This document shows positions 14,348 to 30,839 of a stretch of 64,000 bases of DNA, in pieces. Numbering within the stretch: position 1 is the first letter of the stretch; every line of letters begins with the position of its first letter. A model generated the notes under the pieces. The model saw only the letters and a list, made by a program, of their open reading frames with translations, did no database searches and was not told the origin of the DNA. Origin of the DNA: an uncultured Solibacteraceae bacterium (GTDB lineage: Bacteria; Acidobacteriota; Holophagae; Holophagales; Holophagaceae); assembly GCA_964589695.1 (NCBI GenBank), contig CAZPUI010000001.1, positions 29,866-93,865 on the forward strand, read 5' to 3'. A program made the position numbers and the translations under genes.

Positions 14348-15193
14348 TTAATTGGCTGTCGGTTCGGTGAAGCCGGCCTTCTGGGCACCTGGGGCGTAGG
14401 ACTCGGTCGGGCCCGGGAGGCGCCGCACACCGCTATCCGCCTGGCTCGGATCGGCGAGCTCCACGTCCGCACCCTGGTATCGCGTAACCTGGTAGCGGAG
14501 CACCTTTACGCCGAGTGGGTTCCGCCGCACCCAGGCTTGCCGTAGGTCGTTGTCCGTGGTCTTGACGTAGTCGCCGAGCATGAATTCGAGGGCGATCTCG
14601 TGGCCGGTGGAAGTCCCCGGGCGATAGGCCCCCGTCTGGTCGCAATCGTCTAGGGCATAGCGAATGAAGGCCCTGGCCCCGCTCGATGCCCTCGCCTGGC
14701 CGAGGTTCTCGAGTCGGCACTGCAGGATGCGGACCCGCTTCAGGCCATTGCCGGTCGCGGCCTTGGCGAGGTCTTCACGCGCCTGTTTCACCCAACGCTC
14801 GAGACCATCACCGGTCAGGTAGATCCCGTTCAGTTCGATGGCTTCGGGGAGGGTGAAAGGATTGCGGGAGAACATCCGCATCACCAGGAGCTCGAGGCTG
14901 TTCACGACCTCGGGTTCCTCGGGGATGTACATCTCGTCCACCCGCACGGCCTCGGCGCGACCGACATCATTCACCCGCACGACGATGGGCAGGGTCCGCT
15001 TGAAATCGACCTGCTGCCTCCAGTGGATCATCAGCACCACGACGATCCCCATGGCCATGAGGACATTGGCAAAACGGCTAAGCAGCAAGGCGGTCTTGGG
15101 TGTCGCATGCAGCGCTACGAAATGCGCGCGAGCAAGCTTCATGTCCTCAAGCGTGTATGGATTCCGCTCGTCCGCCTTGGATGGTTTCGGCAT
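14348..15193 (-). CDS. virB8: VirB8 family T4SS protein
   Basis: N-terminal cytoplasmic tail, one TM segment (ANVLMAMGIVVVLMIHW), and a periplasmic domain. It ends with the VirB8-typical NPLG motif (RRNPLGVKVLRYQVTRY). Confidence 0.75.
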   Translation of the reverse strand: MPKPSKADERNPYTLEDMKLARAHFVALHATPKTALLLSRFANVLMAMGIVVVLMIHWRQQVDFKRTLPIVVRVNDVGRAEAVRVDEMYIPEEPEVVNSLELLVMRMFSRNPFTLPEAIELNGIYLTGDGLERWVKQAREDLAKAATGNGLKRVRILQCRLENLGQARASSGARAFIRYALDDCDQTGAYRPGTSTGHEIALEFMLGDYVKTTDNDLRQAWVRRNPLGVKVLRYQVTRYQGADVELADPSQADSGVRRLPGPTESYAPGAQKAGFTEPTAN

Positions 15194-15275: not shown

Positions 15276-16415
15276 TTAGTGGCTCTTCAAATCCGCCTGA
15301 TACACCGATCGCAGGCTTCCATCCACCGCACCGCGCACCAACGCCCAGATCTCGTTCAGCAGGATCGCGATCAGGCCAAACAGGGCAAAGATCTGCAGGG
15401 ACAGGATCACGGCTCCGTACTTAGCCAGGATCCAGTTATAGCTCCCGACTTCGAAGGGATTGCTTCCGGCATTTGCACCCGTGATCATCACGCCGGAGAA
15501 AGCTGACCCGATGATCCCAGACGGCCCAAGCCAGAAGCTCGAGTCGTAGAGCGCGGACGCGAGCTGGCCCACGACGGCCGCTGCGATTGTGAGAGCAAGC
15601 ATCTGCTTGGCGATGTTGATCAGGAACCCCTGCAGGCTTCTGAAGTAGGCCAGAAGCACCAGCAGCGGAAGGAAGTGGAGGCACGCCTTCCACGCGAAGG
15701 CGATGAAGACGTAGTTCACGATGAGTGCCCTGGCCATCGCGATCTGCGTAAAGAAAAAGCTCATGTCTGCGAGCGCGTCGAACAGGGCCTTGAGAATGAG
15801 GTCCACCGCCGAGGTGACGAACTTGTCCAGCATCCCTGGATCCGAGGCGCCCTTGGCGGCGTCGAAGTTGCTGGCCTTGATGGCACGCTCCTGGGCGGCC
15901 TTGATTTCCTCTTTCCCCTTCTCGTAGATCTGGTGGTACTTCAGGCCCTCGACTGCAGTCAGGGCCTTCATGATGCCGGTCTTCATGCCGGCGACCGGCC
16001 TCGCAAGGAACTGGTTCTCCGTTCCGAGCCAGGAGCTGACCACCCTCTGCAGGGGGAGGGAGTCCTTCACCGCCGCATGAGTGCCGTCCATTCTGAATCG
16101 CACGTTGGACACGCCTGCGGCCCCGAGGGCGAGCACCAGGAAGACGAGAAGGCGCACCCCGTGGGTCGCGAATGTCCCGAACAGGCATCCCACTAGGCCG
16201 ATGAAGGTGCCTGACTGAAGGCCTTTGACGAGGGCCGTCAGGTAGTGGAACAGGAAGATCGCACTGATGATCATGAAGACTAGGTTCATCATCGAGCCGA
16301 TCGGCGCGATCGCATCCATGCTCGAAAAGACCGCTCCCGAGATGCTCTGCATCATCGAGACCATCATGGCGAAGTAGCTGTTCGCCTGTGTTCCCACATC
16401 CGGGAAGAGATCCAT
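15276..16415 (-). CDS. virB6: VirB6/TrbL-like polytopic membrane protein, paralog 3
   Basis: The true start MDLFPDVGTQ... is at 16415 (TGATG overlap with the upstream stop). The track's 594-aa version carries an Arg/Gly/His-rich N-terminal extension that I judge spurious. Multiple TM segments. Shares LLAYFRSLQGFLINIAKQ with the other two paralogs. Confidence 0.75.
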   Translation of the reverse strand: MDLFPDVGTQANSYFAMMVSMMQSISGAVFSSMDAIAPIGSMMNLVFMIISAIFLFHYLTALVKGLQSGTFIGLVGCLFGTFATHGVRLLVFLVLALGAAGVSNVRFRMDGTHAAVKDSLPLQRVVSSWLGTENQFLARPVAGMKTGIMKALTAVEGLKYHQIYEKGKEEIKAAQERAIKASNFDAAKGASDPGMLDKFVTSAVDLILKALFDALADMSFFFTQIAMARALIVNYVFIAFAWKACLHFLPLLVLLAYFRSLQGFLINIAKQMLALTIAAAVVGQLASALYDSSFWLGPSGIIGSAFSGVMITGANAGSNPFEVGSYNWILAKYGAVILSLQIFALFGLIAILLNEIWALVRGAVDGSLRSVYQADLKSH

Positions 16416-17749
16416 CACGCACCGCCCTTGTGGTAGGTCATCGTTCCGCCGAGGGCATCCTGGATCACGAGGCCAACCTTTGCGATGAGGGCTGCCATGA
16501 AGGCCAGGATCGTCATGGAGAGCATGGGAATGCCGTAGCTCACAGCAGTCCCTGAGGCGGACATGATCGAGTTGGCACCTCCGGCCGCCAGTTTGCTCCT
16601 CACCATCGCCTTGTACTTGATGGGATCCGGAGCCCCCTTCTGGATCGCCGCCATCTCGGCGTAGACCAGGCGGGCCCTGGATTTCAGCACACTGCCTGGA
16701 TCCTGGTTGGCCAACATATTGGTGGTCGCGGTGGCCACGATCTCCCGCACCTTCTCGGCCTGGAGCAGGTTGGCGGTCGTGACCGCGATGACCTTCAACG
16801 TGATCGCGCAAACAAGGAGGTGCTTCACGATCTGGACGAGAATCCCGGTGGTGGACTCGAAATACGCCAGGACCAGCGCGAGAGGCAGGCAGAAGAGTGC
16901 GATCTTGTAAGAGATGCCGACGTAGAGGACATTCAGCCAGAGCATCCGTGCGATCACCACGTCCGCGAAGAAGTAGGTGAACGTGATGATGAGGCTGGTC
17001 CCCAGGTTCACCAGACCATTCCCCAGCATGGCCATCCCGGTCATGGCGTCGTTGAACCACTGGGTCAGGAGGTTCCCGCCGTTCGATGGGGTCCCCGTTT
17101 GGCTTCCGGGAACGAGAGCCATCTCCTTCAGGACCTCGTCGGCGGCTTTGGCGGCCAGGGCCTTCATCGCGTCATCTCGGGTGCCATTCACGAGACTGAA
17201 CACGCTGAGGTCGCGGCTGGCGGTGGTGATGGCCGTACCCGCGAGGTTGATCATGGTCTCCGGCTGGAGGATGGGAAGGGCCACGGACTCGGACACCCAT
17301 TCGTCGGCCGCGTCTTCCCCCACCCCAGGAATCCGGTAGGTGGGCTCGTAGTTCGGGTCGTACTTGAAATACTCGAACGGCTTCCCGAAGTTCACGTAGA
17401 CCTGGTCGGGGATGAGGGCAATCGGGTAGTCCTCGCCAGCCTTGGTGATCAGGATCCCGTAGGCTCCAGCTCCAAGGAAACAAAAGATCATGGCTCTCAA
17501 ACCCCGTTTGACCAGTTCAGGGGACAGGAAGATGAGCAGGTTCTGCTCCCGGACGAAGTTGAGCACCATGCGCCCTAGCTCCAGGCTGAAGTGCAGCAAC
17601 ACCGCGGCGAACGCTCCGTAGAACAGGACATACATGAGCGGGTTTTGCGCGAAGGCGCCGTCCAGAACGCCCATGGCCTTCATTGCGACCTTCGCCATAG
17701 CCTTGGAGATCAGCAGGGCCGTGGACAGGCCGATGTTCAGCGGATTCAT
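16415..17749 (-). CDS. virB6: VirB6/TrbL-like polytopic membrane protein, paralog 2
   Basis: The true start MNPLNIGLSTALL... is at 17749 (ATGA overlap with the upstream stop at 17746). Multiple TM segments. The shared motif here reads VLAYFESTTGILVQIVKH. Confidence 0.75.
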   Translation of the reverse strand: MNPLNIGLSTALLISKAMAKVAMKAMGVLDGAFAQNPLMYVLFYGAFAAVLLHFSLELGRMVLNFVREQNLLIFLSPELVKRGLRAMIFCFLGAGAYGILITKAGEDYPIALIPDQVYVNFGKPFEYFKYDPNYEPTYRIPGVGEDAADEWVSESVALPILQPETMINLAGTAITTASRDLSVFSLVNGTRDDAMKALAAKAADEVLKEMALVPGSQTGTPSNGGNLLTQWFNDAMTGMAMLGNGLVNLGTSLIITFTYFFADVVIARMLWLNVLYVGISYKIALFCLPLALVLAYFESTTGILVQIVKHLLVCAITLKVIAVTTANLLQAEKVREIVATATTNMLANQDPGSVLKSRARLVYAEMAAIQKGAPDPIKYKAMVRSKLAAGGANSIMSASGTAVSYGIPMLSMTILAFMAALIAKVGLVIQDALGGTMTYHKGGA

Positions 17750-19050
17750 GTTTTCACCGTGGCAGCCTCGCGGCGCATAACATCGCTTGCATCGAAGCTG
17801 CCTTCGAGCGCGCCATTGATGACCTCGTGCAACTTCGCAATGAAGAGCACCATCACGCCGAGCACTGCGACCACGCGCATGACGGATTGGGCAACCCGGC
17901 TCGCGTTGCTCACGCTGGTCGTCGAAAATTTCTCCAGCCAGGTCGCCTCCTCGGCGGGGATGAGGTCCTGGAGTTGAAGTCCAATCCGCATCGCGAAGAG
18001 CTCTCCGGACGAGGGCTCCTCCTTGGCAGTGTTGCGGGCGAAGCGCGAATCCTTCAGTCCCATGGCGATGGCGGTCTTGACCTGCTGCTGGTCGAAGACC
18101 GCCGCGTAGACCGCCCCCATCATGTTGGCCAGGATCAGGAGCACCACCAGGTGGCGGACCATGGATACGGCAAAGCCCCGCAGGCTCGTGAAGTAGCTTA
18201 GCCCTGCTGCTGAGGGGATGAGGATCAGCGCCAGGAAGGTCGCGATCTTCACGTAGATCGAGAAGATGATCACGCCCTTCACCACAACCCACGAAAACCA
18301 GAAGTAGGCTGACCAGGCCAGGAACATAAAAAAGTAGTACCCAGCCATATTTCCGATGGTCGTCGGGATGACCTCAAGCATGCCCTTCATGGAGCCCTTG
18401 CCGTTCACGGCCGCATCCACCACAACACCAGCCACCGTTGCCAGTTTCCGGGCGCTTTCCAGCAGGCCGCCCTTCACCTGGGAGGTTCCGGAATCGGGGG
18501 AGATCCTCGCCTTGCGTCGCTCCCAAAGTGAGCGCATTCGCGGGTCTGATTCCGCGAGCTTCTCGTAGATCTGGTTCCGCCGCCGATCTGCGGCCTCGTT
18601 CAGGAATTCCTCGTAAGCCATGACCGTGTCAACGGCGCGGACCGCCTTGATGGCGGATTTCGCTCCCGAATCGATCTGGGATGTCACCGCGGAGTAGCTC
18701 ACCCCACCGAATTCGCCGGTATCCACCTTCAAGCCTGCGGCCAAGGAGATCTGCCCCCAGGGCGCCAACAGCACCATCAGGGCATAGAAGAACACCACCT
18801 TGCCAATGGCCAGCATGTCCTCGGGCCGGACATGGCCACTGGCGTCATGGACCCAGTGGTTGATGGCCTCCATGACCTTCCAGACAAGCACGAAGGTCAG
18901 GACGAGCCCTACGGCCACCGTCAGGGTGTTCAGCCCACCGAGAAGGGTGCCATTCACCCCGGTCACCGCATTGGCCCTGAAGATCCCGCTGATGAAAAAC
19001 ACCACCTGATTGGCGATCTTGATGAGTTCGGCAAGTGCGTCGGCCATCAC
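17746..19050 (-). CDS. virB6: VirB6/TrbL-like polytopic membrane protein, paralog 1
   Basis: 434 aa, GTG 19050 / ATG 19047, overlapping the upstream stop (19047..19049). Multiple TM segments. The shared motif here reads GLSYFTSLRGFAVSMVRH. Confidence 0.75.
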   Translation of the reverse strand: MMADALAELIKIANQVVFFISGIFRANAVTGVNGTLLGGLNTLTVAVGLVLTFVLVWKVMEAINHWVHDASGHVRPEDMLAIGKVVFFYALMVLLAPWGQISLAAGLKVDTGEFGGVSYSAVTSQIDSGAKSAIKAVRAVDTVMAYEEFLNEAADRRRNQIYEKLAESDPRMRSLWERRKARISPDSGTSQVKGGLLESARKLATVAGVVVDAAVNGKGSMKGMLEVIPTTIGNMAGYYFFMFLAWSAYFWFSWVVVKGVIIFSIYVKIATFLALILIPSAAGLSYFTSLRGFAVSMVRHLVVLLILANMMGAVYAAVFDQQQVKTAIAMGLKDSRFARNTAKEEPSSGELFAMRIGLQLQDLIPAEEATWLEKFSTTSVSNASRVAQSVMRVVAVLGVMVLFIAKLHEVINGALEGSFDASDVMRREAATVKT

Positions 19051-20636
19051 TGCCCCCTGAGGGTTTTCACCCGGGCGGCCAGGGCCTCTGGGGTCAAACC
19101 CGGATCGACCAGGTTCAGTCGCTCCAGGATCCGGCTCGACATCTCCTGGTAGTTCTCCAGCTTGCCTTGGGCGGCCTGGACATCGGCCGCCGCCCGCTGC
19201 ATCTGCTTCTTAAGGAGGATGAAGGCATCCGCTTGGCGGTTCTGTGCATCGTTCCTGATGCGACTGTGCAGGAGCTTCCGGATGGCGATGGCCTCGAGGT
19301 ATGCCGCGTAGGTGGCCTTGGCGTACTGCACGTTCGCCTTGTGGATGATCCGGGGGCCCGAATCCTCGCCCACATCCGGATTGTCGGCGAGGTTGTTCAA
19401 CAGGTCCCCGGAGAGCTCGCCGATGGTCTTGTAGGTGTTGAACACGCTGTCCAGGAAGCCGGTGTTCTCGGGAAGGGCCTGGTTCCGTCTCGCCTGCTCA
19501 CTCTCGCGTTCCTTCGTGACGTTGGTGGTGACAGCCAGTTCCGCCACCAAGCGGCGAATTCGCTTGGACTGGCCCTCGAACACACGGTCGGGCTGGTCGT
19601 ACCAGTACTGGATCTCGGTCTCCAGAGGGGCCACCATCATCGCCAGTTTGGCGGGGCTGGCGCTGTGAAGCTTGCGGAGTTCCGCGATTTCGCTGTTGAT
19701 CTGCTGGATGCGAGCTTCCGCGATGGTCTCCAGTCGCTTCTTGAGGAGCTTGGGACTCGGGCGATCGTCCTGGAGTTTCGCCGAATAGGTCAGACCGTCA
19801 TCCACCATGCTCCGACCCATGACGCCTTCGAACCAGGTCCGGTCCAGAAGTTCATTCGCATCCCTTCCCACCTGGATCAGCCCCTTGTCGATCGAGCCGT
19901 CGTAGGGGCTGGGACTGATGTTCAGGTCGATGTCTGAGAGTTTCGTAGGGCCCTTGTAGGCCAACCTGGGCGCGTCCCAGCTGCCGATGAAGGGGTTGTC
20001 AAGACCCAAGCGGCTGAGGATGTCGCCTCCGGATGCGCCGTTCTTGTAGGTCAGGCCTAGGTGCAGTTTCTCGGTGACGACCCCGAAATCATCGGTCTTG
20101 GTGGGCTCCCAACTGGGGAGCGTGTCCAGCAGATCGATCTGAAGCAGCGCGCCGTCCCAGGCCCGACTCATCACCTCGGCTTTCCGGTAGAGCTGATAGG
20201 CCTTGAGGGCACGCTGGAAGTTGGTCATGGCCTCCTTGCTCACGCCGAGCTGAGGAGCCAGGTCCTCCATCCAGTCATTCATCGAGTTGAGCCCTTCAGT
20301 TGCCCGCTTGGTGAGCTTCGTCATGTCCGCAGTGACATCTGCCAGCCCGCCGCTGATCCAGTCCATCGCGCGTCTGTACCAGGCTGCCTTGTTGGCCTTG
20401 GTCACTGCCCCGCCGAAATCGTTCCCCGCCACGGTGTTGTAGTAGTGATGGCCAGTGGAAAGGGGTATCACATCCCGCAGCACGTTCTGCGCGAATTCAA
20501 TGGTGGCGGTATCGGCAAAGGGACTTGTTGGATATCCGGTGAACGAGAAATGGCGATCCACCTTATTTTGGGCACAACCTGGTGAGCCTCCCGCTAGAAG
20601 CAGAAGTGCCGTCAGCATTGCTCGCAGGTATCCCAT
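19047..20636 (-). CDS. Secreted ~500-aa T4SS-associated protein, family member 5 (positionally VirB5/TrbJ-like)
   Basis: 529 aa. The signal peptide is MGYLRAMLTALLLLAGGSPGCAQ. The mid-protein motif RLAYKGPTKLSDIDLN resembles those in 24637..26259 and 26259..27701. The C-terminal half is helical-looking and rich in A/E/K/Q/R/L. Confidence 0.7.
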   Translation of the reverse strand: MGYLRAMLTALLLLAGGSPGCAQNKVDRHFSFTGYPTSPFADTATIEFAQNVLRDVIPLSTGHHYYNTVAGNDFGGAVTKANKAAWYRRAMDWISGGLADVTADMTKLTKRATEGLNSMNDWMEDLAPQLGVSKEAMTNFQRALKAYQLYRKAEVMSRAWDGALLQIDLLDTLPSWEPTKTDDFGVVTEKLHLGLTYKNGASGGDILSRLGLDNPFIGSWDAPRLAYKGPTKLSDIDLNISPSPYDGSIDKGLIQVGRDANELLDRTWFEGVMGRSMVDDGLTYSAKLQDDRPSPKLLKKRLETIAEARIQQINSEIAELRKLHSASPAKLAMMVAPLETEIQYWYDQPDRVFEGQSKRIRRLVAELAVTTNVTKERESEQARRNQALPENTGFLDSVFNTYKTIGELSGDLLNNLADNPDVGEDSGPRIIHKANVQYAKATYAAYLEAIAIRKLLHSRIRNDAQNRQADAFILLKKQMQRAAADVQAAQGKLENYQEMSSRILERLNLVDPGLTPEALAARVKTLRGQ

Positions 20637-20683
20637 GGCTGGCCTCGACCGACACAGGGGCCGGTGTGGTCAGGATGGGTCGT

Positions 20684-20696
20684 GCGGATTTTCTGG
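20684..20696 (-). promoter_or_regulatory. Element-wide upstream motif, copy 5 (sense CCAGAAAATCCGC)
   Basis: 48 nt upstream of ATG 20636. It lies in the divergent region shared with the XRE regulator gene. Confidence 0.65.
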
Positions 20697-20791
20697 ATTC
20701 TCTCCCCGCACAATGGCGGCCTGCAGGTGACAAGTGTCTTGAGTGCCTTCACGAGGGTCGTTATATGTTGGAAGTCACTGAGAGGAAACCC

Positions 20792-21511
20792 ATGGCGAGA
20801 CCAAGAAATACCTCGGTTCCAAAGGTACATTTGAAACCTGATGCTCTGCCTGACTGGGCCAAAAAGATGAAGGAATATCGGGAGAACGCCGGCTTCACAC
20901 AGGTGGATCTCGAAAAAGCAATGAACGCCCCTGCCAATACCCTAAGCTTGGTTGAACGGGGAAAGCGGCTGATCACTACTGTCGACCGAACCAAGTTTTT
21001 CGAGCTGATTGGACAGCACGAAGACCTCGAGATTCCCGTGAGAATCGTGAAGGAAGCGAAGGCCAAGCGGCCGGCGGTTCCCAAACAGATTAAGGCCTCG
21101 AAACCCAGCAAACCCGCATCCTTGAAAGGGCCAGCCAGGGCTTCCACGGGGCGGAAACCCAATGCCAAGGTCGAGCCAGTAACCCCTCAGGTGCCGGAAG
21201 CGGCGCTCCCCAGCCCGTCTTCGCCTGGGCCGACCGAGGTTGTGGCCCCTGAGCGTGCGGTCGCCCCTCCGGCGGTGGAACGGGTCCAGGACGCTCCCAA
21301 GACCGCCTCCCGGGCAAGGGCACAGAAGAGCATGGAAACCCAAGGGACTCCCACAACGCCAGCCAGCCCCTCGGGCCTCTCTCCGGTTAAGGACGCGGTG
21401 CTGCGCGATATCGCCCGCATCCTTGGCAATCCTGGCCTGAGCGATAGCCAAGCCAGAAACCTTCACGGGCTCTTCACCTCGCTGGCCGTAAACGCCCTGC
21501 TGGGGGGCTGA
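20792..21511 (+). CDS. XRE/Cro-C1 family helix-turn-helix regulator with a Pro/Ala/Ser-rich disordered C-terminal half
   Basis: The HTH is ...YRENAGFTQVDLEKAMNAPANTLSLVERGKR.... I chose start ATG 20792 (MARPRNTS), after GAGAGGAAA. The track's 20582 start would overlap the divergent gene. It is the only + strand gene inside the virB block. Confidence 0.7.
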   Translation: MARPRNTSVPKVHLKPDALPDWAKKMKEYRENAGFTQVDLEKAMNAPANTLSLVERGKRLITTVDRTKFFELIGQHEDLEIPVRIVKEAKAKRPAVPKQIKASKPSKPASLKGPARASTGRKPNAKVEPVTPQVPEAALPSPSSPGPTEVVAPERAVAPPAVERVQDAPKTASRARAQKSMETQGTPTTPASPSGLSPVKDAVLRDIARILGNPGLSDSQARNLHGLFTSLAVNALLGG

Positions 21512-21578
21512 ACTTTCAACCGAGGCTGTCCCGCCGTTTCGTGGTTTCGAGGGGGCCTTGGAAATGAGATACCTCTCT

Positions 21579-23096
21579 TCAGAACGGCACCGTCGTTGCC
21601 ATCTTCTGCCACGCCGACGCATCGATGGCCTGCTTCGCCGCATTCATCGCCTGCAGCTCCTGAATTCGCCGCTCACCCTGCAGCAGCGCCGTGAAGTACC
21701 ACGCGATGTCCTCCTTGGCATCCTTCACGACCTCCACACCCTTCGCCTGGGCCGCGAACTGGTTCTCCGCTGCCAGCATCTGTCGGATCCCATGGAGTTC
21801 CTCAGCCGTGAGGTGCCGGTACATCGCCTTGGTGAGGGCTGCCTGTGCCTCGGCAGCGGGACCACCAGATACGGCCTGAGGAGGCGCAACCTTCCCCTTC
21901 GACAACAGGGTGATGGCCTGCCAGATGATGTAGATCGCCCGGTCTACCTGCTCGTTCCCGGTGATTTCGGGTTCCTGCACCATGAAGGATGGATTCGACC
22001 AGGCCTTTTGGTATTTCTTGAACCGCTCGGAGAGCCTGGCGATGGTGATCCGCCGCTCCGAGGTTTCCAGCCTGCTCAGCACCTGGTGGACGATTTCGGC
22101 TTGTTGGACCCAGGGAGCATTGCGGGAGATCTCGACCCCGAGCGTTTCCGCTTTGGTCTTCTCGAGCTTTGCGATCTCGAGCTTGATGGCGTCTTGCATC
22201 TTCACGCGGTCCTGGACGTTCATGCTCGAGAAAGCCCTGCCCTCCTCGGAACTCGGATTCCTCAGGGCCGCATCAAGCCGGTTCCACTGGTCCTGCAGTG
22301 CCTGGATCCGCCGGTCGATCACCGCGGCTTTCTGGGTGGCCAGGGCTTTCGGGCTGAGCCGTCCCACGTTCATTTCCAGGTTGTTGTCCACCCCTATGTC
22401 CGACAGGAACCTGGCCGCTGAGACCGTCCCGTCGTAGAAGCCCGAGAGCAGCTGCTTCTGGATCTCGTCTTCGGCGAGGTTGTCGGCTCCCCAGACCGAA
22501 CCATCGATCTTGATGTCAGACCAGGAGCGGGGATACCTGATCTCCACCAGCTTCACGCTCCCCCGGGGCCGGTAGTACGGGTTGTCGCCCATCATCGAGG
22601 CGTTCGTTTTCCAGGTATTCGACCCATGCTTCGGCAGGAAGCCGACCATGATGCTACGCCCCGGCCCACCGCTTATGGAGTCGGGCTCCTGGATGATCAT
22701 GTTGGGGATGAATTTGCAGACGTTGATCCGCAGCTGGTACTCATCCAGGAAGCGGATCATCGCCTTCGCCTGCGCCACTAGCTCCGCGCCCTTCTGGATC
22801 TCGTTCATGAAGAGCAGCACCTTCTGGAAGCTGTCCCCTACCTTCGTAAAGAGATTCGCCCCCCCTGTGAACACCTGGGTGCGCCCAGAGGTGGCACCCG
22901 CGATATGGCTGCCGCCGGCCAGGACCCATCGCGCGTCGTGCTGAACGGCCCAGGCCATGTCACTGAAGGAAGGCGGCATCACGAGGGATCCACCGTTGAA
23001 GGTCGGCACCTGGTACCAAAGATCACTCGGATCGAACTGAGCCTGGAGCCGTGCCCCCGCCAGGATCAGGATGAGCGCCAGAAGGAGTTTCCGCAT
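21579..23096 (-). CDS. Secreted ~500-aa T4SS-associated protein, family member 4
   Basis: 505 aa. The signal peptide is MRKLLLALILILAGARLQAQ. It carries the motif GSVKLVEIRYPRSWSDIKIDG. The C-terminal half looks helical. Confidence 0.7.
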   Translation of the reverse strand: MRKLLLALILILAGARLQAQFDPSDLWYQVPTFNGGSLVMPPSFSDMAWAVQHDARWVLAGGSHIAGATSGRTQVFTGGANLFTKVGDSFQKVLLFMNEIQKGAELVAQAKAMIRFLDEYQLRINVCKFIPNMIIQEPDSISGGPGRSIMVGFLPKHGSNTWKTNASMMGDNPYYRPRGSVKLVEIRYPRSWSDIKIDGSVWGADNLAEDEIQKQLLSGFYDGTVSAARFLSDIGVDNNLEMNVGRLSPKALATQKAAVIDRRIQALQDQWNRLDAALRNPSSEEGRAFSSMNVQDRVKMQDAIKLEIAKLEKTKAETLGVEISRNAPWVQQAEIVHQVLSRLETSERRITIARLSERFKKYQKAWSNPSFMVQEPEITGNEQVDRAIYIIWQAITLLSKGKVAPPQAVSGGPAAEAQAALTKAMYRHLTAEELHGIRQMLAAENQFAAQAKGVEVVKDAKEDIAWYFTALLQGERRIQELQAMNAAKQAIDASAWQKMATTVPF

Positions 23097-23104
23097 GTCG
23101 CCAC

Positions 23105-24634
23105 CTACCGCATCGGGAAGAAGGATTCGTGGAGCAGCTTCCCGATCTGGCCGGGACTGAGCACCTGGCTTTCCGCCTGCTGGGCCCCCTGCAGGAGCTG
23201 CAGCCGCTTCCGGAGGCCATCCAGGCGCTCGGATGCCTCGCGGACATTCAGGAGCCCCTTGGCGATGCTGGGTGCGAGTTTGTCAGCGAACTCACGCTTG
23301 GCCTTCAGCGAGTAGATCTGCCGGATGGCCCGGAGCTCGTCCCGGATCATCTTGTTGACCGCGGCGTCGGTCGCTTCGAGCCTAAGTTCGGTGAGCTGCT
23401 CCTCACCCATGACGACGTCTGCGCTGCTTGAGGCGGAGGTGGCCATCATGTCCTCCACGTCCTTGATCCACTTCAGGTAGTCCTCGTTCTCCAGCGGCAG
23501 GGTGATGTTGTTCATGTCCGCTGCCAGTGCTTGAGCGGCCCAGACATCCGCACCCCGTCGTTCAACTCCGTCCTCCATGGTTCTCTGTTCGAGCTTTGCG
23601 ATGGCATTGAAAGCTGCTCGGTTCGCCGAAACCCAGGAGGCGCTCTCAGAAGGACCTATGATTTCCCGCATTCCCCGCCCGATCTCGCTCACGGCGTCAT
23701 TCCAGAAGTCGATGGACTCCTGGGTAAGCTGCCGGACTTCATCCCGCTGGGTGGCGACCGTCCACCGTCTGCCGCGGGTGTCGTTGTCGCCGTACCCGGC
23801 CACCTGGCGCTTGAGCATCGAGAGGCTGGTCATCAATTCATGCATGTTCCGCTGCAGGCGGTACATCACCACGCGCCCGGTCTGGTCATCCTTCATGTAG
23901 TGCGCCAGGGCCCCGTAGAAGGAAGGCTTCACGGCGAGGCTTGGCACCAGGCCCTTCAGGTTGGAGAGCTGCACCTTGTTTTCGAGGCGGTAGCGCGGGT
24001 CGCTGAAGTCGGTCAGCTGTTTGATATTCAAAAGGGCCCCATCGCTTGCGGGCATCACGCTCAGGGTCAGCAGCGGATCACTGGAGTCGTTTTCGTTGAT
24101 GACGCCGATCTTCGGGGCAAGTTTCCAGAGGTCGATGGTGATGTCCCCGCTCTTCAGGGCAAGCACCATGTTTCGATACCTCCCGTAGAGCTTGAGGCTC
24201 TGGTCCCCCACTTCGAGCCATTCCCAAAAAGACAGGGAGGACGGTGCCTTTCCTGTCAGGGGGCCCAGCAGCTTCTTGTTGGTCGCCTTCTCCTGCACCA
24301 GCACCGTCGAGCGTAGGACATTCGACCAGGCCACGCTCTTTCCGTACTCCACTGCGTTGTGGTACGAGGCGTTCTCTGTCAGAGATTGCCAGGGCGCCTT
24401 GCTGGCCGCCGGGATGTAGTAGTAGTCCGTACTCCATTTGCTCGTGGGCCGGGTACCCGGGATCGGGATGGTGATTTCCGGGATCAAGTAGATGCGGGGT
24501 TGGTACCAGGTGAGCCCATAGAAGGTGTAGTTCGGGCCAGGCCGTGTGCCATCAAGTATCGGAAACTGCGCCAGGGCCCTGGTGGCGGTGACCAGGCTGG
24601 CCACGAGGAGGAGGAATCGGAGCAAGCGCAGCAT
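23105..24634 (-). CDS. Secreted ~500-aa T4SS-associated protein, family member 3
   Basis: I chose start MLRLLRFLLLVASLVTATRALAQ at 24634, after GGAAGGTGA and 2 nt beyond the upstream stop. The C-terminal half looks helical. It is the most divergent of the five. Confidence 0.65.
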   Translation of the reverse strand: MLRLLRFLLLVASLVTATRALAQFPILDGTRPGPNYTFYGLTWYQPRIYLIPEITIPIPGTRPTSKWSTDYYYIPAASKAPWQSLTENASYHNAVEYGKSVAWSNVLRSTVLVQEKATNKKLLGPLTGKAPSSLSFWEWLEVGDQSLKLYGRYRNMVLALKSGDITIDLWKLAPKIGVINENDSSDPLLTLSVMPASDGALLNIKQLTDFSDPRYRLENKVQLSNLKGLVPSLAVKPSFYGALAHYMKDDQTGRVVMYRLQRNMHELMTSLSMLKRQVAGYGDNDTRGRRWTVATQRDEVRQLTQESIDFWNDAVSEIGRGMREIIGPSESASWVSANRAAFNAIAKLEQRTMEDGVERRGADVWAAQALAADMNNITLPLENEDYLKWIKDVEDMMATSASSSADVVMGEEQLTELRLEATDAAVNKMIRDELRAIRQIYSLKAKREFADKLAPSIAKGLLNVREASERLDGLRKRLQLLQGAQQAESQVLSPGQIGKLLHESFFPMR

Positions 24635-24636
24635 GA

Positions 24637-26259
24637 TCACCTTCCGAGGATCTGGTTGTTCCGCCAAGCCTGGAGCCCCGCGGTACCCATCTTCAGCTTC
24701 GTCAGCGCCAACTCCCGCTCATGGGCCGCAAAGAGTGCCGCCTCATGGGCCTGGCTGGACTCGGGGTCATTCTCGATGCCCTTGGCAGCCACCTTCTCCA
24801 GTTCCAGGACGTAGAGGAGCTTTCGGCAGGCCCGCAGTTCCTCCCAGAAGTAGTAGCCGAACCGGACTGCAAACATCCGGGCTTGGTAATCGCGCATGGT
24901 GCGGTAGACATCGCTCGTAGGGTCAGCCTGGTCATCCGCGCTCTGGTTCGCATCCCCCTTCACAATGGCCGCCACGTCCCAGGGGAGTTCGATTGCGTTC
25001 AGGTAGGGAACAAGGGAGGGAAACCATTTACCCGTGAACTTCAGGAACTCCTTGATCTCATCCTGGGCCACCTGCCCATTCCACCCATTCACCATCTTCG
25101 CCCACTTGTCTTCCAGCTTCTTGATCTCCGCGGCCCTTTCCATATTCATCGTGAAGGCCACGGCGTTGTCTGCCTGGGCGGACAGCTGCTGGTAGAAGTT
25201 GGCACTCGCCTCCGCCTGGCGGTATGCCGCCTGGGCGTCCTCGATGTACCGAGCCGTCATGGCGCCGTATTCGGAGGCCACCACATTGATGGGTCGCGCC
25301 TCGAGGTAGGCCCGCAGAGCAATCAGGCTGTCGAAGGCCTGGTTGCGCTTGGCAGCCAGCTGTTTGAGCTTCTCGGCCAGGTTCCGCGGGGAATCTGCAT
25401 CCCGCATGGCTTCCCCCACGCGCTTCGAGACCATGGTCCGGATGGCAGCCAGACCCTCACCAGCCGCACGGGTGGCCCGGTCAGCAGCTTCCAGGAAATT
25501 GGCAATGTCCCCGCCCATGTTGCCGGACACCGGCACATAGGCTTCCTCGGCCTCGAGGTTCAAGTCCCCGAAGGACCGAGGTCCCTTGAAGGTAATGCGG
25601 GAACGGTTCTCCCCATCCCAGGTCGGATCGTCCTGGAAGTACTCAGTGACCTGGCGCCAGTTCGCCCGACCCCTGGGGACGATCCCGAGGCTCACCACTC
25701 CGAGGGGCTTCGAGACGACGGTCCACCTGGATCCCCCGGGCAGCGCAACCACGCCGTCCACATCAGGGACCATCGACGCCTCGTACTGCGTGAAATCGAT
25801 GTTTCGCATCATCTGCCAGGCGTTGATCTCGAACCGCATGCCTGCCAGGCAGCTCTTGAGGAGAGCCATCGTCCGCAAGGAGACGCGCGCCTTCTGGTAG
25901 ATGGTCAGCCCCTGGAACATCTTGGTGATAGTCGCCTGGTTGCCGCCAGCGGGCTGGGTGGCGAAGGGGTTCTTCGAGAAGCGCTTCACCCACTCCGGAG
26001 CGTGGTAGGTCCAGAACTTCGCTCCGTTGTCCGTAGACACACCAGTCTCCGGAGTGGGGACCTCGCTGGCGTTGTAGGTTGCATGTCCCACTACCTTGGC
26101 TGCAATGGCAGGGCCGATCATCTTGAGGCCCATCTCGGCCTCTTTCTTCGCCCACTCCTTGTAAGTGATTGCGTCATCGGGATCCAGGACCCACGTGGTC
26201 TGGGCCCGGCCCTCCACCGGACAAAGGAAGAGCACCAGGAGAAACAGCCACCACCGCAT
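24637..26259 (-). CDS. Secreted ~500-aa T4SS-associated protein, family member 2
   Basis: 540 aa. The signal peptide is MRWWLFLLVLFLCPVEGRAQ. It carries the motif SRITFKGPRSFGDLNLE. The start overlaps the upstream stop as TGATG at 26259. Confidence 0.7.
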   Translation of the reverse strand: MRWWLFLLVLFLCPVEGRAQTTWVLDPDDAITYKEWAKKEAEMGLKMIGPAIAAKVVGHATYNASEVPTPETGVSTDNGAKFWTYHAPEWVKRFSKNPFATQPAGGNQATITKMFQGLTIYQKARVSLRTMALLKSCLAGMRFEINAWQMMRNIDFTQYEASMVPDVDGVVALPGGSRWTVVSKPLGVVSLGIVPRGRANWRQVTEYFQDDPTWDGENRSRITFKGPRSFGDLNLEAEEAYVPVSGNMGGDIANFLEAADRATRAAGEGLAAIRTMVSKRVGEAMRDADSPRNLAEKLKQLAAKRNQAFDSLIALRAYLEARPINVVASEYGAMTARYIEDAQAAYRQAEASANFYQQLSAQADNAVAFTMNMERAAEIKKLEDKWAKMVNGWNGQVAQDEIKEFLKFTGKWFPSLVPYLNAIELPWDVAAIVKGDANQSADDQADPTSDVYRTMRDYQARMFAVRFGYYFWEELRACRKLLYVLELEKVAAKGIENDPESSQAHEAALFAAHERELALTKLKMGTAGLQAWRNNQILGR

Positions 26260-27701
26260 CAGAAGGCCCCCCAGCCCAGGTCCGTCATCTTCTGCCGGAT
26301 GGCCCGCTGCTCGCGGATCCGCTCGGCGATGAAATCCAGGTGACCCGTCTGGGCCCTTAGCGTGTTGATTTCCTGGGAGCTCTCCTGGATCTGCTTCACA
26401 CCCTCCAGGGAGGCATCCATACGCTGCAGGGCCGCCACGATGTTGCGGAGTCCCTGGGCCTCCTCGAACTGGTCATGGACGTAGAGAGAGGCCAGGCCCT
26501 TAGCCTGGAGCTTGATGGCGTCCCCATGGGGATTCAGGCCGAACATCTTGTCAACCGCATCCCAGAAGTTGAGGACCTGCAGCCCCATAGGCTTCCAGAT
26601 GGAAGGGTTGGCAGGATCGATGATGCCATCCACGCTCTTCGCCTGCCCGAGGTGGCGCAGTTTGTCGTCAACCTCCCCGCTCTGCTGCCGACGTTCCAAG
26701 GCCTCCAGACGGCCGATCACCTGGTTCACCTCGTGCTGGAGGTTCATGGCGAAGGCGATCTTGGCACTCTGATCGGTCATAACCTTGTCGCCGAACCCCT
26801 GCCAGTAGTCCACCTCCGGCTTCACCAGTTCCACCGCCTTGTTGATGGACATGCCGTGATCGATGTAGAGCCTGAGGATGGTGTTCAGGATGCTCGTGGC
26901 TTCCCTCTCGTAGAGCGAGGCTTGGAGCTTCAGCTGGGTCGGGGAAGCCCGGCCTTCCATCAGGATTTCGCCCGTGTCCTGCAGGACCTGGGTATTAACG
27001 CGCATCCCCCAGCCCGCAATCCGGGCCGCAGCCGAGAGCAGGGCCTCGTAGGAATGCGCCATGACATCCCCCAGAGCCTCGGTACCGAAGACGTCATCAG
27101 TCAATGGGGAGGGATCGAACCCCTGGAAGGCGGCGCCGATGTCACTCCAGTAGGGCAGGTCCAGCGTGATGCGAGAGCCCCCGCCCCCGCCAGCTCCGGC
27201 CAGGAAGTCATCGGCAGGGAACATGAAGTCCCGCCAGTCCGTTTGCAATTCGGGGGGCACCAGACTGAGGGAGAGCATCTCCTTGTCGCCAACGATTGGG
27301 CGTCCTTCGGGATCAACTCCGATCTCGGTGGGGGCAAGGACCTTTATCTGGGGGATGAGGGCCCATTCCCGGCCCCGGAAGTCCATGTTCTTGAATGCGT
27401 ATTTGACGTTCCGGATGGTGCGGACCAGGCGGAGAAATTTCGCGTAGGCCCGGAGCGCAGCGTAGGACTCTTGGGAGATTGCGCTCGTGAGAAGCAGATT
27501 CTGTGCGACTTTCTGCGCTGCAATGTTCGCTTCGAGCTTCCCCCGGGTAGCCTCCAGAGCGGTCAGGTACCCCGTCAATCGGCTGTCATGGGTCACCTGC
27601 CAGATATGGAACCCAGGGGTCTGTGCGCGTCCAGAGGCACACCCGGCGAGGTATCCCAGCAGCAGGGCCATGCGAAGGAGGGAATGGAGCAGGAGGCGCA
27701 T
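26259..27701 (-). CDS. Secreted ~500-aa T4SS-associated protein, family member 1 (probable lipoprotein)
   Basis: 480 aa. The N-terminus MRLLLHSLLRMALLLGYLAGCASGRAQ contains an LAGC lipobox. It carries the motif SRITLDLPYWSDIG. The start lies 9 nt after the virB4 stop, with AGAGGG upstream. Confidence 0.7.
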   Translation of the reverse strand: MRLLLHSLLRMALLLGYLAGCASGRAQTPGFHIWQVTHDSRLTGYLTALEATRGKLEANIAAQKVAQNLLLTSAISQESYAALRAYAKFLRLVRTIRNVKYAFKNMDFRGREWALIPQIKVLAPTEIGVDPEGRPIVGDKEMLSLSLVPPELQTDWRDFMFPADDFLAGAGGGGGSRITLDLPYWSDIGAAFQGFDPSPLTDDVFGTEALGDVMAHSYEALLSAAARIAGWGMRVNTQVLQDTGEILMEGRASPTQLKLQASLYEREATSILNTILRLYIDHGMSINKAVELVKPEVDYWQGFGDKVMTDQSAKIAFAMNLQHEVNQVIGRLEALERRQQSGEVDDKLRHLGQAKSVDGIIDPANPSIWKPMGLQVLNFWDAVDKMFGLNPHGDAIKLQAKGLASLYVHDQFEEAQGLRNIVAALQRMDASLEGVKQIQESSQEINTLRAQTGHLDFIAERIREQRAIRQKMTDLGWGAF

Positions 27702-27710
27702 TGGAGCCCT

Positions 27711-30416
27711 CTAGGCCTGGGTCTCGGCCAGGAAGCGTTCTGCATTCGGGCTTCGCTTGGCCGCAGCAAAGATCTCACCTATGGCTTGGAAGGCCTGGAA
27801 GGGGGTGTAGTCCTCGCTGAAGCGGCAGTTGGCCAGGAACTTGGACCTGAAGGCGCTCTCAGAGGGAGAGGTCGTGTAGATCGCGTAGCTGGTGGAGTCC
27901 GGCTGAAGGATCAGGTAGCGCCGCATGCCGCCGCTATCCATTAAGAAGGCTCCCTGGGGCAGGTTCTTGATCTCATCCACCAGGTGCTGAGGCATCCCGA
28001 GGCCGGTCCTCGGGTTGGTCAACGCCTCGGAAGCGCTGAGGGAGAGGTAGATCCTCGTCGGGACGCCAGCCCCACGGAATGCGTCCCAGAAGATCCGATC
28101 GAAAGTGAACTGGGACGGATCCTGGGTCGCCAGGCCAAAGGTTCCGCCCTTCTTGCGCCAGGTGGTCCAGGCCGTCACCACGAAGGTGCGCAGCTGTTGC
28201 GTGATGAATTCGGACTTCCAGTCGCCCTGCCTTGGCGTGAGGAAAGCGGCAGCCTCGTCGATGAAACAGAGCTTGCGGGTGCCGGCCAATTCCTCGGATT
28301 CGACGGCGGCCGAGATCCGACGGAGGATGTACATGAACACCGGACCTCGGGCGTTGTCCGGAACGTGCTCCTCCTCGAAGTTGAACACCACGAAGTCGCT
28401 GTTGGAGAAACCATCCGGCTCGGCCGGAAAGATGTGGCCGAATTCACCGCCTGGCAGCCAGGGCGCAAGGCGCTTGGCCAGCGCGGAATGACCCATCAAC
28501 CCGCCCGCTAGCATCTCCAGGCTCCCGATCCGCTGCGTGTCCTCGATCTCCTTACCCATCTGAAGGAGGGCTTCCCCGAGAGCCGAGGCCTCCTGCTCCG
28601 TCAGCTCTGCCCTGGTCGTGGCGCCGGCAGCCATCATGAGCCCTAGGAGCTGGACCAGATCGGGGACGGCCGATCGGATCTTCTCGGGACGAAGATCGAA
28701 CGGGTTCAGCTTCGATGGGCTCAGGGGATCGGCGATGTTGATGTAGGCCCCGCCCTGGAGCTGGCACAGGCTCTTGTAGCTGTGTCCCTTGTCGATGAGC
28801 CAGCGCTTGAGCCCACAGGGCGCGGTGCGCGTTCCGGCATAGCGCCCGAAGTTGTTCACCAGGAAGTTGATCAGGAAGCTCTTGCCACCCCCCGATTTCC
28901 CCAGAACCGCGAAATGGGAGATGTTCCCTACCGAGAGGTAGACGTTCACTGGGAAGCCCATCATGGTTTCCGGGCTGAAGTAGCTAAGGCTCGCCAGGGG
29001 TTCCGGGAACTCGCAGCCCTTCGGCGGGGTGGCCCCCCGCCCTTCCGAAGCGCGGTAGGGCAAGTTTACGGCCATGGCAGACGAGGTCTGCAGCACCCGC
29101 GTGTGGAATTCGTAGAGGCGATTGCCCGGCCACACGCTGAAAAAGGCGCAGTCCTTCGTCAGTGCCTCGTGGGTGAGGACGATGCCGTGGCGGTTTGCGG
29201 CAGCCTCGAGCCTTCTGCAGGCGATCCGCAGTTCCTCCTGGTTCCGCCCTGAAAGCACAATCGTCCCGCTCCATTTCGCAAAGGGGCGACCCCGCACGCT
29301 CTCCTTGAGCGCACATGTCATGTCCTCGATGCGCTTGGTCTTGAGGGGATCGCCCTTGGTAAAACCGCCTTGGTTGTGGGCGGATCTAATGCGCTTTGCG
29401 ATAAAGCCGGAGCTCTCCTCCACGTTCATACGTTCCAGGCGGGTATGCACAAGCATTTCGCAGGGCAGGTGACGGATGTGGCGGAGCACATCGACCTGCA
29501 AGGGATCGCGGAACCCCCTGATGGTGAAAACCCGCAGTGGCCTTGAGCCAGAGTAGATGGTCTGGGGGTGCCGCCAGTCGAGCGGAGCCCGAGGAATCCA
29601 GTGGGCTAGGTAGGTCGGGGTCGGCAGGAACGCGTGCTCGGAGACCTCCGGATCCCAGTTCCAGAGCCTCTGGAGCAGGTAGAAGGCATCGAATCCCTTC
29701 AGGGGCATGAAGTTCAAGGAGGTCGCGCCGACGGCAGCCGCAGCATCCTGATTGATGTCGCTGCCCATGTTCAACCGTTCCATCTTGGCGACCACGCCAT
29801 CCATGGCGGCCTGGAATTCACCGATCGCGTCCAGGAGCCGGGCCTGCTGCACCGTCGATGCCTTGTCCCCCGAAAAGACCTGGGTGAGCCGCTCCTGGAA
29901 GATCTTGCGGGCATCAGGGTTGCTGATGGCCTTGAGCGCCAACATGACGAGACCGGAAACACTCGCGCCGAGGCTGTTCGACCCGATGCCCGTCTTCCAC
30001 TCAAAGGCGTAGACCAACCGGGTTCGATGGTACGTGGAGCCCTCCAGCTGCCTTGACCGGGCCTGGTCGATTGCATTGACCAAAGGGTCCCGATAGTCGC
30101 TGTGCAGGGGCCGCCAAGTGTCCGTCTCCTTCAGGTAATACTGCCGAAGGGAGAGCCGCAGATCCGCCTCGTTGAATGCGCCACTGAGAAGGTCGGTGTG
30201 CTCCAGCTTCTGCTCCTCAGAGAGACAGCTCGAATCGATCCCTTCCGTTTCCCAGAAGGCCACCAGGTCCCAGTTCTGCAGCACCAGGACGTCGAAATCC
30301 TCTGTCACGAAACCTACCACTGGGATCCGCTCCTCAGCCAGTTCGAACTGATTCCGAACTCTGTTCCGGTGCAGCTGCTTTTCGAGCGTGCTCTCAGCCA
30401 GATCAAGGGAAGCCAT
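27711..30416 (-). CDS. virB4: VirB4/TrbE/CagE family T4SS ATPase
   Basis: 901 aa. Walker A is VLGKSGGGKSFLINFLV and Walker B is KLCFIDEAAAF. Size and position (after virB2/virB3) are canonical. Confidence 0.9.
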   Translation of the reverse strand: MASLDLAESTLEKQLHRNRVRNQFELAEERIPVVGFVTEDFDVLVLQNWDLVAFWETEGIDSSCLSEEQKLEHTDLLSGAFNEADLRLSLRQYYLKETDTWRPLHSDYRDPLVNAIDQARSRQLEGSTYHRTRLVYAFEWKTGIGSNSLGASVSGLVMLALKAISNPDARKIFQERLTQVFSGDKASTVQQARLLDAIGEFQAAMDGVVAKMERLNMGSDINQDAAAAVGATSLNFMPLKGFDAFYLLQRLWNWDPEVSEHAFLPTPTYLAHWIPRAPLDWRHPQTIYSGSRPLRVFTIRGFRDPLQVDVLRHIRHLPCEMLVHTRLERMNVEESSGFIAKRIRSAHNQGGFTKGDPLKTKRIEDMTCALKESVRGRPFAKWSGTIVLSGRNQEELRIACRRLEAAANRHGIVLTHEALTKDCAFFSVWPGNRLYEFHTRVLQTSSAMAVNLPYRASEGRGATPPKGCEFPEPLASLSYFSPETMMGFPVNVYLSVGNISHFAVLGKSGGGKSFLINFLVNNFGRYAGTRTAPCGLKRWLIDKGHSYKSLCQLQGGAYINIADPLSPSKLNPFDLRPEKIRSAVPDLVQLLGLMMAAGATTRAELTEQEASALGEALLQMGKEIEDTQRIGSLEMLAGGLMGHSALAKRLAPWLPGGEFGHIFPAEPDGFSNSDFVVFNFEEEHVPDNARGPVFMYILRRISAAVESEELAGTRKLCFIDEAAAFLTPRQGDWKSEFITQQLRTFVVTAWTTWRKKGGTFGLATQDPSQFTFDRIFWDAFRGAGVPTRIYLSLSASEALTNPRTGLGMPQHLVDEIKNLPQGAFLMDSGGMRRYLILQPDSTSYAIYTTSPSESAFRSKFLANCRFSEDYTPFQAFQAIGEIFAAAKRSPNAERFLAETQA

Positions 30417-30428: not shown

Positions 30429-30839
30429 TCAATTGAGTGCCAAGGCCGCCGACTCGTCACCCCGAGCAGCGGCACTCCGAAGCGCCGCCCATTCGGTGAG
30501 GGACACAGCTTGGCCCGATGGCAAGTAGACGAATAGGGATTCAGAGCAGTCCTCGCCTGAGGGGATGGTCCAAGAACGTGCCTTGAGGCGGGTGGCCAGT
30601 TGAGCAATCAGTTTCGGTTGATGCACCATCCGCCTTGCCAGGGCCAAGCTTAGAAAGACAATGCCGAACATCCAGCTGAACATCCCGAGACCCAGGGGAA
30701 TGCCACTGAGCAGCAGTCCGGGTAGGAATCCAGCCAGGTTCAGCCCTTTGACCGTGATCGGTTCGTTCAGCTCCACGAAGAATCGATGCACGCGTTCTAG
30801 TCTTTCCGGTTGTGTATTGTTCTCGGATGGTTCGGTCAC
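30429..30839 (-). CDS. virB3: VirB3/TrbD-like small membrane protein (call is mainly positional)
   Basis: 136 aa, GTG start. It has a hydrophobic hairpin, GFLPGLLLSGIPLGLGMFSWMFGIVFLSLALA. It sits between the pilin gene and virB4, and its stop lies 12 nt before the virB4 ATG. Confidence 0.5.
   Translation of the reverse strand: MTEPSENNTQPERLERVHRFFVELNEPITVKGLNLAGFLPGLLLSGIPLGLGMFSWMFGIVFLSLALARRMVHQPKLIAQLATRLKARSWTIPSGEDCSESLFVYLPSGQAVSLTEWAALRSAAARGDESAALALN

Follow-up and report, generated by a model that had tools for sequence, protein, structure and literature searches.

Five ancient paralogs of predicted exported, helical proteins lie between virB4 and virB6-like genes in a rare type IV secretion system lineage

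We analyzed a 64,000-nucleotide (nt) stretch of contig CAZPUI010000001.1 (assembly GCA_964589695.1, positions 29,866 to 93,865), from an uncultured Solibacteraceae bacterium; this whole stretch is called the window below. It carries a type IV secretion system (T4SS) locus in which five open reading frames (ORFs), designated A to E, lie on the minus strand between the gene for a divergent VirB4-family ATPase and the genes for three VirB6-like membrane proteins, F to H (Table 1). An earlier, sequence-only reading had described the five as consecutive genes for proteins of 480 to 540 amino acids (aa) that fill the slot of VirB5 between virB4 and virB6. All five ORFs are present at the coordinates and sizes given. 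The placement stands as a matter of position, but no homology to VirB5 was found, and three VirB6-like genes rather than one follow the block. That the five genes are consecutive is true of the lineage, as seen in related loci, but not literally of the window, because a plus-strand gene for a helix-turn-helix (HTH) protein lies between D and E. Overlapping stops and starts (TGATG or ATGA) or spacers of 2 to 9 nt link VirB4-A-B-C-D and, separately, E-F-G-H, and the TGATG at the A/B junction from which translational coupling had been proposed was found.

Pairwise BLAST and phmmer comparisons among A to E gave weak, collinear signals, and hhalign with four-sequence ortholog profiles already joined most pairs via D. 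The main profiles were built from 10 to 16 sequences per class; they aligned nine of ten pairs collinearly over 220 to 380 columns at probabilities of 95.8 to 99.5%. D was the hub, joined to all four others (A-D, 99.5%; B-D, 99.0%; D-E, 98.7%; C-D, 97.3%), and the remaining links were A-B (98.5%), A-E (98.2%), B-C (97.7%), C-E (96.0%), and B-E (95.8%). The one unlinked pair was A-C, at 18.6%, C being the most divergent paralog. As negative controls, the VirB6-like proteins F, G, and H scored 0.1 to 0.6% against A to E, and TrbJ, represented by a 120-sequence alignment grown from an annotated trbJ gene and therefore by the P-type branch only, scored 0.6% or less. At the level of sequence profiles, the paralogy of A to E is thus confirmed far beyond chance, and the old expansion suspected in the sequence-only reading is borne out. 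Identity between classes is 15 to 22%, which makes the split an ancient one.

The mid-protein motifs quoted earlier are present and align with one another, C carrying a diverged version (PRYRLENKVQLSNLKGL). They fall within a longer shared block, DNP...R..Y.GPR.LSDI, in a pooled 20-sequence alignment (A1), which also contains the blocks R.SP, LE..ER, and a C-terminal EELxAIRxL. The E and R of EELxAIR are invariant in 20 of 20 A1 sequences, across all five classes, and are conserved at 90% or more in a 47-sequence alignment (A4). The N-terminal ~70 to 120 residues are the region in which the paralogs differ most.

The same arrangement was recovered from eight other loci for which DNA was available (L001, L002/L003, L004/L005, L006, L007, L030, L032, and L033) and from one further locus represented by a gene table. 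In these, as in the window, VirB4 is followed by A-B-C-D-E and then by three membrane proteins of ~380 to 505 aa, so that the five-gene block travels with this type of T4SS. All five genes are fully in view in six of the eight DNA loci; L030 shows only the C terminus of VirB4, at the contig start, and the L033 contig begins inside B. The trio is incomplete in L001, L002, and L004, where the first two genes or a cut third gene were recovered. A gene matching CagX lies in L032 at the position corresponding to VirB9 of the window. Gene number and the order A to E were constant across the related T4SS loci, with no copy gain or loss seen.

Orthologs of VirB4 were 41 to 60% identical (mean, 46.7%). 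Mean ortholog identity was 39.7% for A (range, 29 to 53% across seven loci), 37.1% for B (28 to 50%), 36.0% for C (30 to 46%), 40.0% for D (33 to 50%), and 37.0% for E (29 to 47%). In comparison, the means for F and G were 23.3% and 27.0%, and the F/G/H trio, at 23 to 34% identity to its orthologs, is faster evolving than A to E. Mean identities of 36 to 40%, against 23 to 27% for F and G, show that A to E evolve like core parts of the machine.

A single C-type gene was found outside such a locus (L031 10001-11455, P0046). It encodes a 484-aa protein with ~30% identity to C of the window and a signal peptide of the kind described below, and the element that carries it lacks VirB4 and the other four paralogs. 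That element is small and integrated beside EF-G, with an integrase, an HTH_17 excisionase-like gene, a 619-aa type IV coupling protein (T4CP), and a possible relaxase. It may be a mobilizable element that brings its own version of one subunit.

An exhaustive HMMER search of 1.84 billion representative proteins with alignment A2 (the D family, the A family, and B, C, and E of the window) returned 41 matches at E <= 1e-3. BLAST assigned every one of them to A, B, C, D, or E, about evenly among the five classes, and the search returned no intermediate, ancestral-looking, differently sized, or VirB5-sized relative. When the pooled 20-sequence alignment was used in a word-indexed homolog search, only D-type proteins were recovered; the exhaustive hidden Markov model search was needed for the other classes. 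The family appears to be confined to one T4SS lineage on plasmid-like or integrative and conjugative element (ICE)-like elements of hosts that follow the Q-rule introduced below.

The statement in the sequence-only reading that the proteins fit no named T4SS component family held in every library searched. For the five window proteins, Pfam gave nothing significant and NCBIfam gave no match; PHROGs likewise had no match for A to E. A Pfam scan of 47 members at E <= 10 (25 of the 47 matched families listed; the remainder each matched one member) gave, among the matches listed, only the coiled-coil ABC_tran_CTD, in 6 members. A match to F-type TraH, TraU, or TraN had been named beforehand as an adverse outcome; none of these, nor TraW or TrbC, was among the listed Pfam matches of the 47 members or the NCBIfam results for the five window proteins. 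Members are 470 to 575 aa long in all loci, versus ~260 aa for TrbJ. What A to E have in common with VirB5 is a signal peptide for export and the gene position; they differ in profile similarity and in size, VirB5 being typically ~220 to 260 aa long, with a three-helix bundle and a globular appendage. No other exported candidate of canonical VirB5 size (~220 aa) was found in the operon.

The partner ATPase is likewise isolated. VirB4 of the window had 24% identity or less to any protein of 72,556 plasmids, and a scan of 185,579 GTDB species-representative genomes with this single sequence gave no match. A scan of GTDB with a six-sequence VirB4 alignment returned distant VirB4s only, at 19 to 27% over full-length or Walker-region matches and at 31 to 38% only over short segments of 80 to 115 residues. 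The T4SS itself belongs to a known kind of system, in what these comparisons indicate is a deep-branching and rare lineage. Neither the A to E family, nor this T4SS lineage, nor a fixed five-paralog replacement of VirB5 is described in the libraries or literature searched.

Signal peptides were called by hydropathy and motif inspection. Each of A to E in the window has one, with the junctions GRA/QT (A), GRA/QT (B), ALA/QF (C), LQA/QF (D), and GCA/QN (E), and no hydrophobic segment beyond it. All 30 orthologs checked, from six loci, likewise have a signal peptide ending in [AG]Q and no other hydrophobic segment. The A-Q junction had earlier been read as a feature shared by the five, and the quoted junctions are indeed there. 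It is not specific to them: the same Q junction occurs in a 561-aa protein of the window (...CFGQT) and in VirB10 (...GHSQE), and, with very few exceptions, the signal peptides of these window proteins and of L001 to L007 have [AG/S]Q at their end. Since it is present in all 30 orthologs and in other exported window proteins, the junction is no signature of A to E. It fits the Q-rule, by which most signal peptidase I substrates carry Gln just past the cleavage site in >99% of Bacteroidetes species (PMC5837995), and is thus a trait of the host; Ignavibacterium is also high in this respect (PMC5837995). The junction therefore points to a Bacteroidota- or Ignavibacteriota-like host, even though the element has ~60% G+C and its VirB4 is without near kin among GTDB species representatives. 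The Q-rule is associated with pyroglutamate N termini. A LAGC lipobox had also been noted in A. Cys is found at that position in just one other of the six loci compared, so that a lipoprotein reading of A was rejected as a family feature.

A to E are predicted to be soluble and almost wholly alpha-helical. An AlphaFold2 model of D from 21 sequences (mean predicted local distance difference test [pLDDT], 59; predicted template modeling score [pTM], 0.31) consists mostly of long helices. That of mature A from 47 sequences was better (pLDDT, 70.8; pTM, 0.41), with values of 80 to 97 in the C-terminal half; its segments are given in Table 1. The helical C-terminal halves expected from the sequence are seen in both models. 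In Foldseek searches of the two models against the PDB, the best hits were BAR and coiled-coil proteins (E values of 0.4 and 0.7). With BFVD included, no hit was better than E = 0.1 to 0.7, all being generic BAR, coiled-coil, or tape-measure-like helices, and mature A had no significant match in either library. We infer that the low monomer confidence of the long helices and the conserved loop may be what is expected of a subunit that completes its fold only within an assembly.

Table 1. Features of the window, segments of the A model, and gene lengths in related loci
Feature	Coordinates	Strand	Length (aa)	Remarks
VirB4-family ATPase, divergent	27711-30416	-	901	Adjoins A upstream; 9-nt spacer to A
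Paralog A	26259-27701	-	480	TGATG overlap with B
A, mid-protein motif	27135-27176	-		SRITLDLPYWSDIG
A, C-terminal motif	26445-26465	-		EEAQGLR
Paralog B	24637-26259	-	540	Start overlaps A stop; 2-nt spacer to C
B, mid-protein motif	25555-25602	-		
B, C-terminal motif	24823-24843	-		
Paralog C	23105-24634	-	509	8-nt spacer to D
C, mid-protein motif	23948-23998	-		
C, C-terminal motif	23321-23341	-		
Paralog D	21579-23096	-	505	~940-nt gap to E
D, mid-protein motif	22506-22559	-		
D, C-terminal motif	21783-21803	-		
XRE-type HTH gene	20792-21511	+	239	HTH_31 5e-5, HTH_3 3e-4; between D and E
Paralog E	19047-20636	-	529	Stop overlaps F start
E, mid-protein motif	19920-19967	-		
E, C-terminal motif	19278-19298	-		
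F, VirB6/TrbL-like polytopic membrane protein	17746-19050	-	434	ATGA overlap with G
G, second VirB6-like paralog	16415-17749	-	444	TGATG overlap with H
H, third VirB6-like paralog	15276-16415	-	379	Followed by VirB8-, VirB9-, and VirB10-like genes
VirB8-like	14348-15193	-		Pfam VirB8 8.7e-6
VirB9/CagX	13383-14321	-		Pfam CagX 1.2e-21
Protein with no family match	12278-13450	-	390	Between VirB9 and VirB10
VirB10/TrbI	11230-12276	-		Pfam TrbI 5.3e-30
Two small hydrophobic ORFs	30429-31458	-	178; 136	Just upstream of VirB4; 178-aa ORF probably shorter (internal Met)
DprA beside ComF-like ORF	34783-36151	-		DNA_processg_A 2.7e-53
Exported protein with Q junction	37778-39463		561	
Low-GC patch	44000-48000			G+C 43-52%; LytS-type histidine-kinase gene
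Protein with T4CP domains	49790-54979	-	1729	
ParA-type ATPase	59304-60713	+		
A model, N-terminal helix				~65 residues
A model, beta hairpin	93-119			Mature numbering
A model, low-confidence loop	130-179			Mature numbering; conserved PR.LSDI motif
A model, helical bundle	181-323			Mature numbering
A model, terminal helix	367-448			Mature numbering; ~80 residues, E...R pair
L001 (via P0003), after VirB4			486, 546, 528, 548, 537	Then 461, 503, 445+
L002/L003 (via P0006)			471, 539, 505, 511, 528	Then 407, 446, 417+
P0004 locus, gene table only			485, 561, 533, 550, 540	Then 460, 505, 442+
L004/L005 (via P0005)				Five genes; then 445, 474, third cut at contig end (93+)
L006 (via P0019)			475, 536, 514, 531, 538	Then 417, 469, 417
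L007 (via P0015)			489, 547, 513, 508, 526	Then 447, 442, 422, then CagX, TrbI
L030 (via P0030)			515, 553, 520, 510, 559	Then 480, 450, 406+
L032 (via P0053)			512, 545, 509, 533, 575	Then 458, 445, 419
L033 (via P0044)				Starts inside B; C, D, E; then 425, 433, 406

The HTH protein has a Pro/Ala-rich tail, and its gene lies outside the paralog set. It was seen in the window only, with none in L001, L002, L004, L006, L007, L030, L032, or L033, and D and E are separated by ~1 to 90 nt in the related loci versus ~940 nt in the window. A minus-strand ORF at 20942-21643 (233 aa) was rejected as a gene, being an Arg-rich antisense reading of the HTH gene. A scan for promoters and terminators around the insertion found nothing above shuffled expectation. 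Because the insertion splits the operon, E-F-G-H and the VirB8 to VirB10 genes would need read-through or a promoter of their own. The HTH protein may be a regulator acquired by the element in the window.

F has six hydrophobic segments by hydropathy, and F, G, and H are mutually paralogous (hhalign F-G, 97.7%; F-H, 98.1%); F showed no relation to A to E (0.1%). One of 15 members of the F/G/H family had a Pfam TrbL/VirB6 match (5e-5), and conservation of the trio extends to the related loci. Elsewhere, VirB4 matched TIGR00929 at 2e-50, under the curated cutoff of NCBIfam, and the Pfam families P-loop_TraG (1.7e-11) and CagE_TrbE_VirB (3e-4). Upstream of it lie a T2SSE/VirB11-like protein (9.5e-25) and a 1729-aa protein with the T4CP domains TraG-D_C/TrwB. 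The locus therefore has what defines a T4SS: VirB4, envelope components of VirB6, VirB8, VirB9, and VirB10 type, a VirB11-like protein, and coupling-protein domains. In the 1729-aa protein, TraG-D_C and TrwB_AAD_bind are confined to the last ~250 residues, the N-terminal ~1450 residues having a weak DEAD match and otherwise no Pfam match. The two small ORFs just upstream of VirB4, neither with a Pfam match, look like a VirB2-type pilin and VirB3 by hydropathy. The 390-aa protein between VirB9 and VirB10 has one transmembrane segment and an Ala/Gln/Lys-rich region; L007 has a 363-aa gene at the same position.

A large plasmid or ICE is suggested as the carrier of the T4SS of the window by its DprA and ParA-like genes and by the size of related contigs (109 to 158 kb). 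The G+C content of the element is ~60%, and the low-GC patch looks like cargo from a different background. Polyvalent-protein modules (ART-PolyVal, LPD1, and RNase_T) lie near the T4SS genes in L001 (534-2014) and L006 (17338-21596). Such modules are typical of conjugative elements that inject anti-defense proteins.

We favor, with a probability of about 0.5, the reading that A to E are helical, Sec-exported proteins that serve, in a new T4SS lineage, as non-redundant structural subunits of the axial portion of the machine in the periplasm. Structural subunits, rather than variable adhesins, are indicated by the fixed number and order, the 1:1 orthology, the slower evolution, and the similar class counts. 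In the mechanism proposed, the five would be made in near-equimolar amounts, and predicted Sec cleavage would leave an N-terminal Gln on each. In the periplasm they would build a hetero-oligomeric axial structure, which could be a stalk or a pilus base or tip complex, atop the VirB6-like inner-membrane platform. Every paralog would have its own fixed place, in one ring of five different subunits or in successive layers, and not serve as an alternative adhesin. The function would be analogous to that of the VirB5 homopentamer in R388 and of IcmX in Dot/Icm.

Several observations weigh against this reading. PF07996 (VirB5/TrbJ) was not among the listed Pfam matches of the 47 members, TrbJ reached no more than 0.6% in hhalign against each class profile and the pooled profile, and a PDB sequence search with the family profiles returned designed helical proteins only and no T4SS chain. 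Among the 50 PDB hits listed by Foldseek there was no VirB5, TraC, CagL, or other T4SS chain, although with models as modest as these (pTM, 0.31 and 0.41) a fold resemblance could have been missed. Since no homology was found, a VirB5-like role is argued from gene position and cellular location only, and position between virB4 and virB6 is itself a weak criterion, because trbJ is placed elsewhere in trb operons. The platform consists of three VirB6-like paralogs, which do not mirror the number five. The HTH gene splits the block without visible damage to E, so that tight co-transcription of all five is not obligatory, and the solo C-type gene in the unrelated element L031 means that at least one paralog can occur alone.

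The sequence-only reading had proposed instead that the set diversifies recipient or target recognition. A to E would then be alternative versions of an adhesin or pilus tip, and their number would serve to broaden or switch recognition, as in trwJ/trwL of Bartonella Trw. They are indeed exported, several, and in the VirB5 position, the N-terminal region is where they differ most, and Bartonella offers a precedent in its multiple variable VirB5 copies (PMC12857230). Diversified recognition, however, predicts variable copy number and fast evolution, and the data are opposite: five copies, their order, and their 1:1 orthology are unchanged across related loci whose VirB4s are only 41 to 60% identical, the low identity between paralogs reflects an ancient split with no recent duplication or turnover, and A to E are more conserved than the VirB6-like proteins, with no copy gained or lost at any locus. 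The proposal is therefore disfavored, and we consider it distinctly improbable. It is also conceivable that A to E are Sec-exported cargo or a translocon, for example, an alpha-helical pore former, pushed out by the T4SS, in the manner of the five pertussis-toxin subunits and the VirB5-less Ptl system. Five Sec-exported proteins do adjoin a T4SS, a review relays the proposal that pertussis toxin stands in for VirB5 (PMC12857230), and the pores ClyA and SmhB appeared in the Foldseek output, very weakly (E = 2 to 5). Those hits are not significant, however, and the genes are embedded between virB4 and the virB6-like genes, stops overlapping starts, rather than set apart in a cargo operon. A to E also co-vary with the machine at every locus and evolve at the rates of core components, and the T4CP and DprA-type genes on the element are typical of DNA transfer; we regard cargo as highly improbable.

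Two further possibilities concern geometry. A stacked axial rod, in which each paralog would make one of five homo-oligomeric layers of a long periplasmic rod or cylinder, like the paralogous flagellar rod proteins, differs from the favored reading in geometry alone. The long N- and C-terminal helices that flank a variable middle in the models, the equal conservation of the five classes, and the larger central cylinders reported for expanded T4SSs (PMC12857230) would suit it, but no flagellar axial similarity appeared in the Pfam or Foldseek output, and we consider it improbable. The other possibility is an obligate hetero-pentamer, with one each of A to E on a mixed platform of the three VirB6-like proteins, that would replace the homopentameric VirB5 cap. 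The hint is suggestive and by analogy, a numerical match only between five paralogs and a five-fold stalk, and we think this specific form unlikely. Rod layers and hetero-pentamer are equally open as geometries. A hetero-pentamer, if true, would be a symmetry-broken stalk whose positions could each specialize, with recipient contact, channel gating, and pilin docking as examples.

No part of a T4SS is less well understood or less conserved than the stalk, and many systems appear to lack VirB5. If non-redundant structural subunits are the right reading, a lineage that keeps VirB4, VirB6, VirB8, VirB9, VirB10, and VirB11 yet has an orphan five-paralog set in the VirB5 position would suggest that unrelated proteins can be used to rebuild the axial part. 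Five distinguishable subunits would also offer a built-in test of how pilus nucleation and the passage of substrates are linked to the symmetry of the stalk and the position of each subunit, and the value of the system would rise sharply if the stalk proved heteromeric. Two unannotated families, A to E and the F/G/H VirB6-like trio, are defined here. This T4SS type is absent from the 185,579 species-representative genomes and the plasmid database, and current mating-pair formation typing would probably miss or mis-call it.

Among known systems, A to E are like VirB5/TrbJ (PF07996; TraC of pKM101, TrwJ of R388, and Agrobacterium VirB5) in being exported and helix-rich and in being encoded between virB4 and virB6. 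In R388, VirB5 forms a pentamer that sits on a pentamer of VirB6 (PMC9259494). Unlike VirB5/TrbJ, A to E are twice as large, comprise five paralogs rather than one gene, have no sequence, profile, or fold similarity to it, and make up a closed family of 41 representatives in 1.84 billion proteins. IcmX of Dot/Icm is comparable in size to A to E; unlike them, it is a single gene. By description it too is exported to the periplasm and exceeds VirB5 in size, and it acts in the central channel together with a VirB6-like partner; DotA/IcmX are also pentamers (PMC12857230).

The Bartonella Trw system is like this locus in having several genes in the VirB5 position. The Trw copies are thought to give antigenic or host-range variation. 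They are multiple and variable (PMC12857230), duplicates of canonical VirB5, whereas the present set consists of five ancient classes of fixed number and order with no VirB5 homology. In the rvh T4SS of Rickettsiales, five VirB6 paralogs, RvhB6a to RvhB6e, are conserved and VirB5 is absent (PMC2653234). The expanded component there is the polytopic VirB6, whereas here it is a set of soluble exports and the VirB6-like proteins number three. Both systems nonetheless have a conserved five-paralog set of a stalk-region component and no recognizable VirB5, and the rvh VirB6 set is the nearest conceptual precedent for A to E.

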